From positions 1 through 48,614 of the forward strand of contig QMWA01000001.1 in NCBI GenBank assembly GCA_003661385.1: a stretch of 48,614 bases of DNA, given 5' to 3'. Position 1 is the first letter of the stretch. Each line of letters starts with the position of its first letter. The DNA comes from Thermoproteota archaeon (lineage in GTDB: Archaea > Korarchaeota > Korarchaeia > B14-G2). Below the pieces are notes generated by a model. The model did not search any database, was not told the DNA's origin, and saw only the letters and a program-made list of their open reading frames with translations. The translations under genes and the position numbers were made by a program. Shown here piece by piece: positions 2,211 to 41,384 of this stretch.

Positions 2211-3269
2211 ATGAAGCCGGTACCCATAGTTTACGATGACTCAATTAAGAAGTATAGCTTCCCTGGTACTCACCCATTCAAGGGAAGCAGGTTTGAGAAG
2301 TTCATAAGATACCTAAAAGAGAGCAAGCTAGTCAAAGAGGACCTATGCAAGATAATAGGATTCATAGGTCCTCCTCCATCAGAAGAGGAGCTTCAGCTAG
2401 TGCACTCCCCCTTTTATGTAAGGAGAGTTGCAGAGATGTCCAGGTCAGGGATCGGCTTGCTCTCAATAGATACACCAGTCTTTAAAGGTGCTTACGAGGC
2501 CTTCCTAAGCATACTTCACTCCACTCTCTCAGCTTACAGAGCTATAGCCTCCGGTGAGGCTGAGGTAGCTGTCGGAATAGGTGGAGGTCTGCACCATGCT
2601 GGAAGGAGCTATGGTGAGGGGTTCTGCATATTTAATGATGTAGCCATTGTCGCCAAGTATGCTCAGAAGGAAGGCTTCAAGAAAATCTTCATATTCGACT
2701 ACGACGCCCACCAGGGGAATGGAACAATGGATATCTTCTATAGCGACCCAACAGTCTTCTACTTAAGTATACACCAAGATCCGCTCACCTTGTACCCTGG
2801 AACAGGCTTCGTAGAGCAGGTTGGAGTAGGGGAAGGTGAGGGATACACGTGTAACATACCGCTTCCTCCTGGAGCTGGGAGGAGCTGCTATGAAAGGGCG
2901 ATCAAAGAGGTTTTTCTCCCGCTAGTGGAGTGCTTCAAGCCAGACCTCATAATATGCAATGGAGGAAGCGACCCCCATTACAATGACCCTCTCACCATGC
3001 TAAGCTTAGACCTCAAAGGCTTCTGGCTCATAGGCCGCTCTATAAGAGAAGCAGCAGATGTAGCTGGAGCACCTGCTATCGACTTGATAGCTAGCGGATA
3101 TGACGAGGAAATCCTGCCGAGAGCATGGACTTGCATAATAGCTGGGATAGTGAGCTTCGAGGAAGAGCCATGCAGCGAGCCGCCTAGAGAGCTACCTGAG
3201 GCAGCTTCAGCATTCGAAAACACGCTAAGAGAAGTCAAGCAGGTTATGAAGAGGTACTGGAGCATATAA
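2211..3269 (+). CDS. histone deacetylase / acetoin-utilisation / acetylpolyamine amidohydrolase family protein
   Basis: GGGLHHAGRSYGEGFCIFND (HH pair), FDYDAHQGNGT (Zn ligands), NGGSDPHYNDPL, ASGY. 352 aa. Confidence 0.85.
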   Translation: MKPVPIVYDDSIKKYSFPGTHPFKGSRFEKFIRYLKESKLVKEDLCKIIGFIGPPPSEEELQLVHSPFYVRRVAEMSRSGIGLLSIDTPVFKGAYEAFLSILHSTLSAYRAIASGEAEVAVGIGGGLHHAGRSYGEGFCIFNDVAIVAKYAQKEGFKKIFIFDYDAHQGNGTMDIFYSDPTVFYLSIHQDPLTLYPGTGFVEQVGVGEGEGYTCNIPLPPGAGRSCYERAIKEVFLPLVECFKPDLIICNGGSDPHYNDPLTMLSLDLKGFWLIGRSIREAADVAGAPAIDLIASGYDEEILPRAWTCIIAGIVSFEEEPCSEPPRELPEAASAFENTLREVKQVMKRYWSI

Positions 3270-33557: not shown

Positions 33558-35087
33558 TTAACCTGAGATCCTGATGAGCTTCACCTCACCCGTGGTTTTG
33601 TCCCTAATCTTGAGCTTTACTGTCTGCGGCGTCATCAGAGCCATGTAGTACAGCCCTTTAACAGCCTCTTCAACTGAAAGCCCTATGGTAGCCTCCAACA
33701 TAGCTGCTGCATTCACGACATATGGGTGCTTAGCCCTATAGCAGCTCACCCTATCTCCACCTGCTGTCTCAATGAGTACCACATGCTCTCCTCCTGGGCT
33801 TTCTACCCTAGCCACACATAGCCCTCTACCAGCTTTCCTAGCTACCCTAGACCTGAACGCGCCTGCAGGCGCTGTCCTAAGGGCTTCAGCAGCTATATCC
33901 ATGGCTTCAATGGCTTCTCTAAGCTCAAGCTCCATGATGCTAGCTAGGTCTCCCCCACTCTCTACGAGAGCTGCCTTCTTCAGCTCACTGTACACCGCAT
34001 AAGGCTCGTCGACCCTAACATCCAAGGCAGCTCCACATGCCCTTGCAACTACGCCAGTAGCCCCCTCCACTAGGCTCCCCCTTACTTTGCATACACCACT
34101 GAGCTCTTCGCAGGCCTTGTCTACCACCTCACTTGACTCAAGCTTCTCTCTGGCTTCACTTAGCCTGCTAGCCAGCTTACTCTCCTTATCTCCGCTGATA
34201 TCGAAGGCGACGCCCCCGATCAGAATAGCTCCAAGCCCTAGAGGGCTTCCAGTTGCAGCCACAAAGCCGCTCCTCAGGAGCCTTTCAGCCTCATGCCCCT
34301 CGCTCCAGCTGTATCCAAGCCATCTCAGAAACCTAACTAGGTGCTCCACATGTGCTAGTGCTCTCTCGGCTTCAAGGAGCACAGCTCTGAGGTACTCGCC
34401 TCGTAACGGTGGGCTCACACCAAGAGCTTCCTCAGCAGCCATCGAGTAGCATGCTGCCTGAGCTATGGGGTATCTTCCAGCCCTTTCAGCTAGAGGAAGG
34501 CTTCTGAACAGCCCTTGCTCCTCAGCTCTCCTCTCAACGCCGTAGTGTAATCCCCCTAGAGCGAGAACCCCGCCTTCCACCATGCCCTTCTCAGCTGAGA
34601 CCTCGAAGAAAGCCCCTCCCCTCAAGCTAGCAGAAGCCAGCTTACTTCTCACGTCCTCAGCTCTGGCTCTAAGCGGATAAAGCTCACTAGGCCACCCTTC
34701 GGGCAGAAAGAGCACCATGGATTTGCCTCTCCCGCTGTATTCCACTCCAAGCAGGCTAGCTGTCTCTGCTTCATAAACTGCTGCAGCAGGATATACACCT
34801 GAGCTGGAATCCAGCTTCCACCCTTCAGCCGCCAGGATAACGACCCCTTCTCTGCCAGCTAGCAGGTACCTGACCAGGGGCCTCTCCTCTCTCAGGCATG
34901 CAGCTATGTAGGCTAGCCTGAAGCCGGCTTCCTTAAGCTTTCTGAGGGCCTCAACTAGAGCAGCAGCCTCAACCTGGGCTTCTACCTTCCCTCCTTTAAG
35001 CTCCCTAACCTCAGCAGCCCCCTCTCCAACAGAGCTCTTGACAAGCTCAAGTAAGCTGCCTGCCATCATAGCACCATTGGGGCTCAC
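33558..35087 (-). CDS. fused NuoC-like / NuoD-like ([NiFe]-hydrogenase large-subunit fold) protein lacking Ni-Fe cysteine ligands
   Basis: The N-terminal ~150 aa align to the in-window NuoC (LKEAGFRL..., GVYPAAAVYEAETASLLGVEYSG, LPEGWPSELYPLR). The rest aligns to the in-window NuoD (LGGLHYGVERRAEE, ILIGGVAFDI, DVRVDEPYAVY, VESPGGEHVVLIE...YRAKHPYVVN). RxCGxCxxxH is replaced by RAGRYPIAQAA and DPCxxCxxR by YYMALMTPQ. ATG 35069 is a possible alternative start. Confidence 0.75.
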   Translation of the reverse strand: MSPNGAMMAGSLLELVKSSVGEGAAEVRELKGGKVEAQVEAAALVEALRKLKEAGFRLAYIAACLREERPLVRYLLAGREGVVILAAEGWKLDSSSGVYPAAAVYEAETASLLGVEYSGRGKSMVLFLPEGWPSELYPLRARAEDVRSKLASASLRGGAFFEVSAEKGMVEGGVLALGGLHYGVERRAEEQGLFRSLPLAERAGRYPIAQAACYSMAAEEALGVSPPLRGEYLRAVLLEAERALAHVEHLVRFLRWLGYSWSEGHEAERLLRSGFVAATGSPLGLGAILIGGVAFDISGDKESKLASRLSEAREKLESSEVVDKACEELSGVCKVRGSLVEGATGVVARACGAALDVRVDEPYAVYSELKKAALVESGGDLASIMELELREAIEAMDIAAEALRTAPAGAFRSRVARKAGRGLCVARVESPGGEHVVLIETAGGDRVSCYRAKHPYVVNAAAMLEATIGLSVEEAVKGLYYMALMTPQTVKLKIRDKTTGEVKLIRISG

Positions 35088-35113
35088 TCTGAGCCTTCAA
35101 TAAGGTTACTAAC

Positions 35114-35131
35114 CTAGCTGCATGCAGCTAG
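35114..35131. promoter_or_regulatory. 18-bp perfect palindrome CTAGCTGCATGCAGCTAG between divergent hydrogenase-like genes (candidate operator)
   Basis: Exact reverse-complement symmetry. It lies in the 77-nt divergent spacer, flanked by A/T-rich TATA-like stretches (35097-35109 facing the minus strand, 35135-35144 facing the plus strand). Confidence 0.5.
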
Positions 35132-35164
35132 AGCAAAGCTTATCTTCAGAGCTAGAAGCCCCCC

Positions 35165-35755
35165 ATGGGGCTTCACTTGCAGGCTAGCTCAGGGCTTAAG
35201 CTAGTTCATGTAGCTGTTGGCCTGTGCAGCGGCTGCCTCAGGCAGGTTGAAGCTGCTCTAAGCTCTGGGGGAGAGTTGCACGAGAAGAGCATCCTAGTTG
35301 TCTCAGGTGCTCCTTCTCACATACATGCACGCGAGATACAGGAGGCTTGGAGGTCTCTACCAGAGCCTAAGGTCGCTATCGCTGTAGGTGCATGTGCTTG
35401 CAGCGGTGGAGTATTCAGGGAGTGCTATGCTTTTAGGGCTCTAAACAGCATTATACCAGTCAAAGTGATGGTGTCAGGCTGCCCCCCTCCTGAGGAAGCA
35501 ATCCTCAAAGCTCTTAGAGAGGAAGCTGCCTCAGCTGATGTAGATGGCTATAGAGGGGCTCCAGCTATAAACGAAGAACTCTGTGTAGCTTGTGGGCTAT
35601 GTAGCCGGGAATGCCCACCTGGAGCATTAGAGGCGGGGGAAGGAGAGAAACCGAGGCTTAACCAGTGGAGGTGCATAAGCTGCAGCCGATGCGAGATGAT
35701 ATGCCCTAGAGGAGCCATTGAGATGACACCTAGATTCACCATATCGCTCACTTAA
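35165..35755 (+). CDS. hydrogenase small-subunit/NuoB-like protein fused to a 2x[4Fe-4S] ferredoxin domain
   Basis: Aligns to the in-window NuoB: VGLCSGCLRQVE (CxxC spacing as in group-4 hydrogenase small subunits, not the NuoB CC), LPEPKVAIAVGACACSGGVF, VSGCPPPEEA. The C-terminal domain carries CVACGLCSRECP and CISCSRCEMICP. Confidence 0.8.
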   Translation: MGLHLQASSGLKLVHVAVGLCSGCLRQVEAALSSGGELHEKSILVVSGAPSHIHAREIQEAWRSLPEPKVAIAVGACACSGGVFRECYAFRALNSIIPVKVMVSGCPPPEEAILKALREEAASADVDGYRGAPAINEELCVACGLCSRECPPGALEAGEGEKPRLNQWRCISCSRCEMICPRGAIEMTPRFTISLT

Positions 35756-39771: not shown

Positions 39772-40228
39772 GCTCCTAAAAGCCGCGCTCAGCGGCGTCG
39801 AGTGCCTCATCGGAGAGGAAAGTGGGATACCGACGGTGAGAGTCCACCCAGAGAACCTCCTTGAGGCAGCTAAGAAGCTGAAGGAAAGCGGATTCGACCA
39901 CGTGAAGTCGGTAACCGGGTTAGACTACCCAGATGAAGGGGAGATAGAGGTAGTATACCATGTCTCATCATACACCAAGCCTGAGCTGACGAAGGTCATA
40001 GTAGCCTTGAAGGCTAGAGTCAAGAGGGACTCGCCAAAGCTCACGTCACTTTACGGGATATGGCCTAGCTCAGCCTACCTGGAGTCAGAGACCTACGACC
40101 TGATGGGGGTGGAGTTCGAGGGAAACCCGAAGCAGAGGAGGCTTCTTCTACCTGAAGACTACGAGGGAATCCCTCCACTCAGGAAGGACTTCAAGATACC
40201 TGTCGAGGGGGTTGATGCGGTTGAGTGA
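39740..40228 (+). CDS. nuoC: NADH-quinone oxidoreductase subunit C
   Basis: 30-kDa subunit motifs: SLYGIWPSSAYLESETYDLMGVEFEGNP...LLLPEDYEGIPPLRKDF. Confidence 0.9.
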   Translation: MSKLKLEEVLELLKAALSGVECLIGEESGIPTVRVHPENLLEAAKKLKESGFDHVKSVTGLDYPDEGEIEVVYHVSSYTKPELTKVIVALKARVKRDSPKLTSLYGIWPSSAYLESETYDLMGVEFEGNPKQRRLLLPEDYEGIPPLRKDFKIPVEGVDAVE

Positions 40229-41384
40229 GAGGACAATCGAGCTCTATATAGGCCCCCAGCACCCCGGCTCAGGCCACATGAGGTTTGACATAACGCTTGA
40301 CGGGGACATAATAGTGAAAGCTGAGCCTAGCATAGGCTACGTACACAGGTCAGTCGAGAAAATAGCAGAGACTAAAACCTACATCCAGATAGCTCCCCTG
40401 GTTGAGAGGCCTTCTCTGGCTGACACAGTCAACCCAAACCTAGGCTACATCCTAGCACTGGAGAAGCTTCTAGGAATTGAGGCTCCACCCAGAGCACAGT
40501 ACCTGAGGACACTAGCAGCTGAAGCAAACAGGATCCACAGCCACTTCTACGGTATAGGGATCCTAGGCATAATGCTAGGCTCCTCAACGGCATTCATGTG
40601 GGCCTTCGCAGACAGGGAGATCATGATAGAGCTCCTCCAGATGCTGACTGGAGCTAGGATAACATACTCATATGTAATACCAGGTGGAGTCAGGAGAGAC
40701 CTCCCAGTAGGCTTCAAGGAGGCAGCTGAAAAAGCGCTGAGGTACCTGGAGAGGAGGCTAAAAGACTACGAGAAGCTCTTCTTCGAGAACCCCGTCACAG
40801 TAGCTAGGCTCAAGGGCGTTGGGGTGCTGAAAAAGGAGGATGCTATAGCCCTAGGGATAGTGGGCCCAAACCTGAGGGCTTCAGGGGTCCACTATGATGT
40901 CAGGAGGATAGAGCCCTACGCTGCCTATGACGACCTAGACTTCGAGGTAGTGGTCAAGAAGGAGGGAGACTCCTACGCCAGGCTCATGGCTAGAGTCGAG
41001 GAGATAAAGCAGAGCATGCGTATAATAAGGCAGGTGCTCGAGAAGATACCTGATGGCCCAATACTCCACGAGAAGTACTACAAGATGATCCCTCCGAAGA
41101 CTAGAAAGCAGATAGAGGAGACTGGCAGGCTCAAGTTCCCAGCTGCATTCGCAACGCTAAAGCCCCCCAAGGGGGAGGCTTTGTCCAGGGTTGAGGGGGC
41201 TAGAGGAGAGTTCCTCTATTACGTTGTCAGCGATGGCTCACCTAGGCCATACAGGTTCAGAATGGTCTCCCCGTCATTCAGGAACGTATGGCTATTTGCC
41301 CACCTGCTTCCAGGCCACAGGCTAGCTGACATACCAGCCATATACGGTAGCATAGACTACTTCCCGCCCTGCGCTGACAGGTGA
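40212..41384 (+). CDS. nuoD: NADH-quinone oxidoreductase subunit D
   Basis: IGPQHPGSGHMRF, GYVHRSVEK, EGARGEFLYYVVSDG...YRFRMVSPSF. As expected for NuoD, there are no Ni-Fe Cys pairs. Confidence 0.9.
   Translation: MMRLSERTIELYIGPQHPGSGHMRFDITLDGDIIVKAEPSIGYVHRSVEKIAETKTYIQIAPLVERPSLADTVNPNLGYILALEKLLGIEAPPRAQYLRTLAAEANRIHSHFYGIGILGIMLGSSTAFMWAFADREIMIELLQMLTGARITYSYVIPGGVRRDLPVGFKEAAEKALRYLERRLKDYEKLFFENPVTVARLKGVGVLKKEDAIALGIVGPNLRASGVHYDVRRIEPYAAYDDLDFEVVVKKEGDSYARLMARVEEIKQSMRIIRQVLEKIPDGPILHEKYYKMIPPKTRKQIEETGRLKFPAAFATLKPPKGEALSRVEGARGEFLYYVVSDGSPRPYRFRMVSPSFRNVWLFAHLLPGHRLADIPAIYGSIDYFPPCADR

Follow-up and report, generated by a model that had tools for sequence, protein, structure and literature searches.

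What can a relative of the hydrogenase large subunits do once every ligand of its Ni-Fe site has been lost? This question is raised by a gene in the 48,614-nucleotide stretch analysed here (hereafter, the window), which spans positions 1 to 48,614 of contig QMWA01000001.1 (assembly GCA_003661385.1) and belongs to an uncultured archaeon of a hot environment (Thermoproteota; GTDB class Korarchaeia) whose genome is 91% complete. The gene encodes a 509-residue fusion of a NuoC-like and a NuoD-like protein, here termed CD', and is located 3.7 kb upstream of the nuo operon, which is on the opposite strand and has a NuoC and a NuoD of its own. We tentatively regard CD', at a little under an even chance, as the large-subunit-like core of a genus-specific, membrane-less four-gene module that acts as an F420-linked oxidoreductase with a reaction partner other than H+/H2. 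What makes CD' interpretable is its gene context, namely an FpoF/FrhB-like gene, a NuoB-NuoI fusion (here termed B'I') and the absence of membrane subunits.

The former Ni-Fe site and the affinity of CD'

The Ni-Fe site of CD' is lost: all four cysteines, the histidine of the L1 motif and the arginine of the PRG motif are missing, and the GPxHP segment is replaced. In group-4 [NiFe] hydrogenases, the four cysteine ligands belong to an L1 motif of the form C[GS][ILV]C[AGNS]xxH and an L2 motif of the form [DE][PL]Cx[AGST]Cx[DE][RL] (PMC7886697), neither of which occurs in CD' (AGRYPIAQ and ALMTPQTVK, respectively) or in its orthologue from a sister species. When aligned with the Cys-bearing group-4 large subunits, ER-AGRYPIAQ of CD' stands against ERICGICGFIH, with Ala203 and Tyr206 (a histidine in the orthologue) at the L1 cysteine positions and Gln210 at that of the L1 histidine. 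Similarly, MALMTPQTVK stands against IDPCFSCTDR, with Met485 (an alanine in the orthologue) and Gln488 at the L2 cysteine positions, while the PRG arginine is gone from SPGGE in CD' and DPLGE in the orthologue, and HRG has changed to HYG. The seven cysteines of CD' are found at residues 64, 213, 326, 333, 351, 424 and 449, only those at 64, 213, 351 and 449 being common to both orthologues, and no CxxC pair is present in the 509 residues of CD' or in the orthologue. In line with the preliminary description of this DNA, which had reported the loss of both Ni-Fe cysteine motifs and of any CxxC pair, no conserved Cys ligands emerged from the alignments with HycE and the group-4 subunits. Its statement that CD' is neither a hydrogenase nor an obvious NuoD also held. 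The first-shell Ni-Fe residues are all gone, and the scores against the curated NuoD models lie below their cut-offs. From its sequence, CD' is predicted to bind no Ni-Fe centre and to be incapable of making or splitting H2.

The claim that KLASASLRGG replaces the GPQHP segment was upheld in part. The segment is not kept, and its replacement depends on the aligner, with a KLASASLRGG substitution in alignment A5 and a 17-residue gap in alignment A1; this region (residues 121-156) had an AlphaFold2 pLDDT below 50. The ligands of the quinone head group in Thermus thermophilus Nqo4, which we take to be His38 in the β1-β2 loop and Tyr87, were also traced in CD', as had been suggested earlier, and by alignment neither is conserved: the His38 equivalent falls in KLASASLRGG, which contains no histidine, and the Tyr87 equivalent is Arg205, beside Tyr206, the residue that is a histidine in the orthologue.

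As a separate observation, the canonical NuoD of the window (40212-41384) carries a leucine at the quinone-binding tyrosine position (ERPSLADT versus DRVDY/DRSDY, by alignment), and a methionine is found there in NuoD from a second genus of the class. The acceptor site of the archaeal complex I encoded in the window may, on this evidence, differ from that of textbook complex I.

The tail of about 17 residues, previously described as an addition, matches the C-terminal extension of group-4 hydrogenases and is therefore better regarded as retained. The extension pattern, ..DR-VxVVD-xxTGK.., was present in 33 of the 57 L2-bearing group-4 hydrogenases retrieved, and CD' reads VK-LKIRD-KTTGE.. at this place, aligning with LAVVDVGTGRRW.. 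of MbhL in a relative (L026) and with LAFVDVSRGRRW.. in another genome (G018). The NuoD sequences in alignment A5, in turn, stop at the L2-equivalent DR. AlphaFold2 predicted two strands for the tail, as a block with a pLDDT of approximately 82-88. At the other end of the protein, the NuoC-like domain, in which residues 56-75 are 95% identical between the orthologues, ends in the linker motif FLPEGWPSELYPLR. This linker is of the LPEGWPxxLYPLR type and resembles those of MbhK and HycE; its counterpart in MbhK of the same relative (L026) reads LFLPEGWPEGLYPLRKE in alignment A5.

CD' had been presented as a paralogue of the NuoC and NuoD of the window. Homology to both was recovered, since Pfam identified Complex1_30kDa (PF00329) at residues 38-141 and Complex1_49kDa (PF00346) at residues 276-414, and BLASTP matched CD' to the window's own NuoC (29% identity, E 1e-10, residues 38-132) and NuoD (26% identity, E 6e-18, residues 157-459). 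However, this link was overstated, as group-4 subunits score higher: bit scores were 88.7 with a fused HycE-like protein and 87.4 with MbhL of relatives, compared to 56.9 with the own NuoD. The best sequence match in the PDB was HycE (7z0s_E, E 4.5e-20), followed by 6u8y_L. CD' fell far below all cut-offs of the curated NuoD, FpoD and NuoCD models of NCBIfam (91.7 bits against NF004739, cut-off 360; 70 against TIGR01962, cut-off 459), and the only NuoD-type model that it passed was the broad Pfam PF00346 (60 versus a cut-off of 24). An insertion of about 26 residues in the window's own NuoD is also missing from CD' (A1). By similarity, CD' thus appears closer to group-4 hydrogenases than to the NuoD of the window, an affinity which we draw from the similarity ranking and from discrete characters (the tail, the linker and a CxxC motif in the partner subunit) and not from a tree.

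In the IQ-TREE phylogeny, the CD' pair was placed on a stem of 2.06 substitutions per site, outside the 29-row clade of proteins like Ehr (energy-converting-hydrogenase-related), and adjacent to the NuoD clade, where other Cys-less orphans joined it weakly. Owing to this very long stem branch, the tree does not settle the descent of CD': approximately unbiased tests rejected neither a grouping with NuoD (p 0.55) nor one within the Ehr-like clade (p 0.20, at a cost of 16.3 lnL units), and the affiliation with Ehr that the preliminary description had raised was neither demonstrated nor rejected. The orphans that weakly join CD' are public metagenome proteins (P0011, P0117 and P0136), and one such Cys-less orphan is a 351-residue protein from Planctomycetota annotated as hypothetical.

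No other group-4 large subunit was found in the genome, while most other genomes of the class carry one that is Cys-bearing or of the Mbh type, and large subunits of this kind are represented in the genus by the Cys-less CD' and NuoD only. CD' may be the remnant of the group-4 hydrogenase that is common elsewhere in the class.

Conservation of CD' and its partner genes

A single full orthologue of CD' was found, in the one other species of the genus (64% identity, 532 codons). Below an E-value of 1e-30, a search of 1.84 billion representative proteins returned only the cluster of CD' itself; the next matches had approximately 28% identity, and the two best representative matches were Cys-bearing fused hydrogenases. 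A word-index protein search with a 24-sequence alignment yielded nothing beyond the first search, and a locus search with the two orthologues retrieved only the sister genome and one contig with an Mbh-type hydrogenase. In these searches, the CD' family was found only in this genus.

The four-gene locus is syntenic gene for gene in the sister species, and the Nei-Gojobori ratio of nonsynonymous to synonymous substitution (dN/dS) between the two species was about 0.16 for CD', with values of 0.15 for B'I', 0.13 for a coiled-coil protein and 0.11 for the FrhB-like protein; DNA ligase (0.15) and canonical NuoD (0.04) were included for comparison, and all of these values are rough because dS is near saturation. 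That CD' might be a decaying pseudogene or a functionless gene, which the preliminary description had wished to exclude, is highly improbable. The protein has indeed changed faster than canonical NuoD (64% versus 95% identity between the species, with NuoB and NuoD at 93-95%) and sits on the long branch mentioned above, but both species retain an uninterrupted reading frame (509 and 532 codons), the fold is predicted to be intact, conservation extends to the partners and the operon, and the dN/dS value indicates purifying selection, which argues that CD' is not decaying. We conclude from these comparisons that CD' is a functional, fast-evolving protein and not a pseudogene. GC content was uniform across the region and gave no indication of recent horizontal transfer.

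The best AlphaFold2 model of CD', built from a shallow alignment of 10 rows, reached a pLDDT of 80.5 and a pTM of 0.83, with one of the five models attaining a pLDDT of 80. A Foldseek comparison of this model found the fold intact, with Escherichia coli HycE (7z0s_E) as the best match (TMq 0.82) and E. coli NuoCD next (TMq 0.80). The most conserved stretch of the D-like part comprises residues 201-235, that is, the old L1 and the following helix, in which identity was 0.90 versus a mean of 0.64; in homologues, the stretch around L1 faces the proximal cluster.

The coordinates of CD', its former motifs and its partner genes are compiled in Table 1.

Table 1. Features of the CD' locus, in positions of the window
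Feature	Position	Strand	Basis
CD' gene (NuoC/MbhK-like and NuoD/HycE-like fusion, 509 aa)	33558..35087	minus	Open reading frame and translation; Pfam
NuoC/30-kDa-like domain, CD' residues 38-141	34665..34976	minus	Pfam
Former L1 Ni-Fe motif, CD' residues 199-216 (LAERAGRYPIAQAACYSM)	34440..34493	minus	HMMER alignment to HycE; A1
Former L2 Ni-Fe motif, CD' residues 482-491 (MALMTPQTVK)	33615..33644	minus	Alignments A1 and A5
C-terminal tail, CD' residues 492-509 (LKIRDKTTGEVKLIRISG)	33561..33614	minus	Alignment to group-4 large-subunit extension
Coiled-coil protein, charged, 106 aa	33211..33531	minus	Weak likeness to A/V-ATPase subunit H/G/E
FpoF/FrhB-type flavoprotein, 348 aa	32178..33224	minus	Pfam FrhB_FdhB_N and _C; NCBIfam
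B'I' gene (NuoB/MbhJ-like small subunit and NuoI/HycF/MbhN-like 2x[4Fe-4S] domain, 196 aa)	35165..35755	plus	Pfam Oxidored_q6, Fer4
Divergent intergenic region, 77 bp	35088..35164		Comparison of the window and the sister locus L002

B'I' is transcribed divergently from CD', at a distance of 77 bp, and its NCBIfam matches comprise NuoB, NuoI, HycF and FrhG. The FrhG model (TIGR03294) matched across both domains (residues 40-184) with an E-value of 7.7e-12, and the PDB entry 9r51_C was also matched. In alignment A6, the four cysteines of the proximal cluster and both CxxCxxCxxxCP motifs are kept in three lineages. The first cluster motif of B'I' is of the hydrogenase-type CxxC, versus CC in the NuoB of the window, and B'I' lacks the N-terminal extension and 11 further residues found in NuoB and MbhJ. 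The NuoB-like domain was modelled confidently by AlphaFold2, and the ferredoxin domain with a pLDDT below 50. The third B'I' lineage is a metagenome sequence (P0157) on a 712-bp contig of the European Nucleotide Archive, with 64% identity and all Cys ligands kept, and it indicates that the module is not confined to the two assembled genomes. With regard to the sister species, the public call of B'I' (L013 9410-10000) has 165 residues and cuts off the conserved CxxC, the 196-residue frame being the conserved one.

Downstream of CD', the gene for the coiled-coil protein begins after 26 nt and overlaps the FpoF-like gene by 14 nt. The coiled-coil protein, 81% identical in the orthologous locus, matched the NCBIfam model AhaH at 1.8e-08, below its cut-off. 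In the FpoF-like protein, the F420-reductase domain is preceded by an N-terminal 2x[4Fe-4S] ferredoxin domain; the protein scored 276 bits against PRK09325 (cut-off 269) and is encoded by the sole FrhB-family gene found in the genome. Its best PDB match (8riu_B, E 9e-63, residues 18-345) belongs to the F420-reducing CO dehydrogenase of Ca. Ethanoperedens, where this zeta subunit is a plug-in F420 reductase (PMC11493965). No transmembrane helix was predicted in the four module proteins, and neither NuoH-like nor antiporter-like membrane-subunit genes were found in the cluster of either species.

The divergent region contains the conserved A/T-rich (TATA-like) boxes TTCAATAAGGTTAC and GCAAAGCTTATCTT. 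Since a TATA-like box lies too near the GTG at 35087, the true start of CD' is probably the ATG at 35069, which forms part of a conserved ATGATG (MM). A perfect 18-bp palindrome, CTAGCTGCATGCAGCTAG (35114-35131), was considered as a shared operator and rejected, as it has no conserved counterpart in the sister species (L002, positions approximately 3047-3064).

Proposed function of the module and its alternatives

All soluble parts (B, C, D and I) of the peripheral arm of a group-4 hydrogenase or complex I are encoded in the module, in two polypeptides, together with an F420 flavoprotein. On the best reading of this gene content, it would be a soluble, Frh-like enzyme assembled from group-4 and complex-I parts, in which the four proteins would form one complex, F420 would serve as the cofactor, and either the former Ni-Fe pocket or the proximal cluster would be the catalytic site. 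We propose that CD' keeps the fold and the surface that would cover the proximal [4Fe-4S] cluster of B'I'. A hydride from F420H2 would be passed to FAD in the FpoF-like subunit, from which electrons would move through the [4Fe-4S] clusters of this subunit and the two NuoI-like clusters to the proximal cluster at the B'/CD' interface, where a non-proton acceptor would be reduced in or beside the former Ni-Fe pocket; the reverse path, ending in F420 reduction, would be possible as well. The acceptor may be a soluble carrier, a quinone or, as in MBS, a compound of sulfur. MBS offers a precedent: after loss of its Ni-Fe site, catalysis takes place at the proximal cluster itself (PMC7684303).

A bolder form of this proposal, which we consider somewhat unlikely, is that the Ni-Fe pocket or the proximal cluster has been re-used in a soluble F420H2-dependent reductase of a substrate new to the family. 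If true, the hydrogenase module would have been independently re-used once more, following the cases of quinone (complex I) and polysulfide (MBS), and this would explain how the F420 pool is coupled in archaea with a lone FrhB homologue.

Several observations weigh against an F420-linked oxidoreductase with CD' at its catalytic core. The hairpin that replaces the GPxHP (β1-β2) region is the least conserved part of CD' (0.20-0.35 identity). FpoF on its own can function as a ferredoxin:F420 oxidoreductase in Methanosarcina; consequently, a link to F420 could exist without a catalytic CD'. Conservation of single residues was sampled thinly, the comparison comprising only two full orthologues and one partner fragment. 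With regard to F420 synthesis, CofD and CofE were detected above cut-offs, with CofD and two CofE-type genes carried by G000:C81 and C199, while CofH (FO synthase) was not found in the 91%-complete genome, so that either FO is scavenged or the gene falls in an assembly gap.

A rather unlikely alternative is that CD' is a pure scaffold devoid of a substrate site, kept for the folding of the B'I' small subunit and the shielding of its proximal cluster, in which case the enzyme would be an Fe-S wire linking the FpoF-like flavoprotein to a soluble carrier, for instance ferredoxin, and would work as a ferredoxin:F420 oxidoreductase supplying F420H2 to Mtd and Mer. The first-shell residues of the old site have all been replaced by unreactive ones, the hairpin of the substrate chamber is poorly conserved, and the high conservation around L1 would equally fit a cluster-covering interface. 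In addition, the genus needs F420H2 for Wood-Ljungdahl enzymes of the tetrahydromethanopterin type and has no Frh, and the source of F420H2 in lone-FrhB archaea is an acknowledged open point (PMC7886697, PMC10667645). However, the ligands of a proximal cluster that led nowhere should have been lost, and all four cysteines are kept in the three lineages; moreover, the FpoF-like protein has its own 2x[4Fe-4S] entry domain, and a B'I'/CD' pair of 700 residues would be costly for a wire. Among the functions considered, that of a maturation scaffold of the HupK/HoxV type, with CD' holding the Fe(CN)2CO unit for the [NiFe] hydrogenases of the genome, is very improbable. Three such hydrogenases (groups 1 and 3) are encoded and HypD is present in the sister genome, but neither hyp nor endopeptidase genes were found in the cluster or its flanks, and CD' is accompanied by an F420 flavoprotein and an Fe-S small subunit instead of chaperones. 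HupK and HoxV, furthermore, retain a cysteine in L1, whereas CD' has none.

A different role, as an alternative peripheral arm, has also to be weighed, in which B'I', CD' and the FpoF-like subunit would replace NuoB, C, D and I on the neighbouring 11-subunit complex I. The resulting enzyme would be an F420H2:quinone oxidoreductase (Fqo/Fpo-like), and two differently fuelled arms would share one proton-pumping arm; this radical variant of the proposal, which makes the module an exchangeable second peripheral arm for a single membrane arm, seems to us improbable. In its favour, each peripheral-arm subunit (B, C, D, I and F) has a homologue in the module, the only NuoH and the only set of antiporter subunits in the genome are encoded by the canonical nuoABCDHIJKMLN operon, which lacks an input module of its own, and quinone side-chain genes lie within the 3.7 kb between the module and this operon in both species. 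Oxidation of F420H2 of the Fqo type has, in addition, been proposed for some Korarchaeia that encode the Wood-Ljungdahl pathway (PMC10667645). Nevertheless, the nuo operon has its own B, C, D and I, which are far more conserved (NuoB and NuoD, 93-95% identity); B' lacks the N-terminal extension and the 11 residues shared by NuoB and MbhJ; the replaced hairpin of CD', which would contact NuoH, is its least conserved segment; and equivalents of the quinone ligands are absent from CD'.

Comparison with known systems and genome background

By both sequence and structure, CD' is best matched by HycE of the E. coli FHL (7Z0S chain E) and MbhL of the Pyrococcus furiosus MBH (6CFW chain L). As in HycE, the NuoC-like and large-subunit domains are fused, and with HycE and MbhL the locus shares the LPEGWPxxLYPLR linker, an extension of the VxVVDxxTG type and a partner small subunit with CxxC. 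Unlike these hydrogenases, CD' lacks the four Ni-Fe cysteines, the L1 histidine, the PRG arginine and GPxHP, and its cluster, which is without NuoH-like or antiporter-like genes, is joined to an F420 flavoprotein. The overall composition of the module resembles that of FrhABG (group 3a; 3ZFS/4OMF), with a large subunit, a small subunit carrying a C-terminal two-cluster ferredoxin domain and an FrhB-type FAD/[4Fe-4S] subunit, and, like FrhABG, the module is predicted to be soluble, as it has no transmembrane helices. It differs from FrhABG in that its large and small subunits are of the group-4/complex-I kind (PF00346 and not PF00374), in the lack of a Ni-Fe site, in the additional N-terminal 2x[4Fe-4S] domain of the F420 subunit (as in FpoF and 8RIU zeta) and in the additional coiled-coil protein.

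With NuoD and NuoCD (E. coli 7P7K chain C; T. thermophilus Nqo4), CD' has in common the fold (TMq 0.80) and the loss of the four Ni-Fe cysteines and, with E. coli NuoCD in particular, the C-D fusion; it departs from NuoD in lacking the His38/Tyr87 equivalents and the insertion of the window's NuoD, in its C-terminal tail, in its location outside the nuo operon and in its partner, which carries CxxC instead of CC. Ehr and the MBS/Mbx of Thermococcales (6U8Y) likewise combine a group-4-type large subunit that has lost its Ni-Fe ligands with a retained Fe-S chain. However, MbsL keeps two of the four Ni-Fe cysteines and CD' none, and the CD' cluster lacks the NuoH-like or Mrp-type membrane subunits of Ehr and MBS, clustering with NuoH-like and Mrp/antiporter-like membrane subunits being part of the definition of Ehr (PMC6349859). 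As to the F420 subunit, its FpoF-like domain plan is that of the plug-in F420 reductases (8RIU/8RJA zeta, FwdI of Ca. Ethanoperedens; FpoF/FqoF), with the difference that the host enzyme is here a cofactor-less hydrogenase look-alike and not a CO dehydrogenase (CODH), a formylmethanofuran dehydrogenase or a membrane complex.

Cys-less relatives of the group-4 large subunit are already known (NuoD, FpoD, Ehr and Mbx/MBS). What is new is the combination of complete Ni-Fe loss, absence of membrane genes and an intact Fe-S chain, as well as the operonic FpoF-type F420 subunit and coiled-coil protein and the position beside a complete complex I; in a literature search, no description of a membrane-less module of FrhB and a Cys-less group-4 subunit was found. 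On the prevailing view, complex I descends from a hydrogenase module that lost its Ni-Fe site and began reducing quinone, and MBS represents a second such change; the CD' locus is a separate natural case and shows how freely hydrogenase modules recombine. In papers on Bathyarchaeia and Korarchaeia that bear the Wood-Ljungdahl pathway, the partner of the lone FrhB and the source or fate of F420H2 have been left open (PMC7886697, PMC10667645), and in the present genus this partner appears to be the CD' module.

Mtd and Mer were found in the sister genome, and a fragment of Mer lies at a contig end in the source genome. The three [NiFe] hydrogenases of the genome belong to PF00374, are encoded away from the module and all score well below the FrhA equivalog cut-off; HypD in the sister genome is located approximately 50 kb from the module, on the same contig. 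FrhB homologues of the remaining genera of the class were found in Wood-Ljungdahl/CODH clusters or beside HdrA-like genes, and never beside a group-4-like pair. In one of these genera (L051, G020:C17, 5138-10654; L052, G024:C21, 5312-10831), an FrhB/FpoF-type gene adjoins genes for a CooC-like protein and a protein like the corrinoid protein of CODH/acetyl-CoA synthase, with Mtd- and Mer-like genes nearby, the names of these neighbours being taken from N-terminal sequences only. Such a grouping of genes is reminiscent of the CO dehydrogenase by which Ca. Ethanoperedens reduces F420 (PDB 8RIU).

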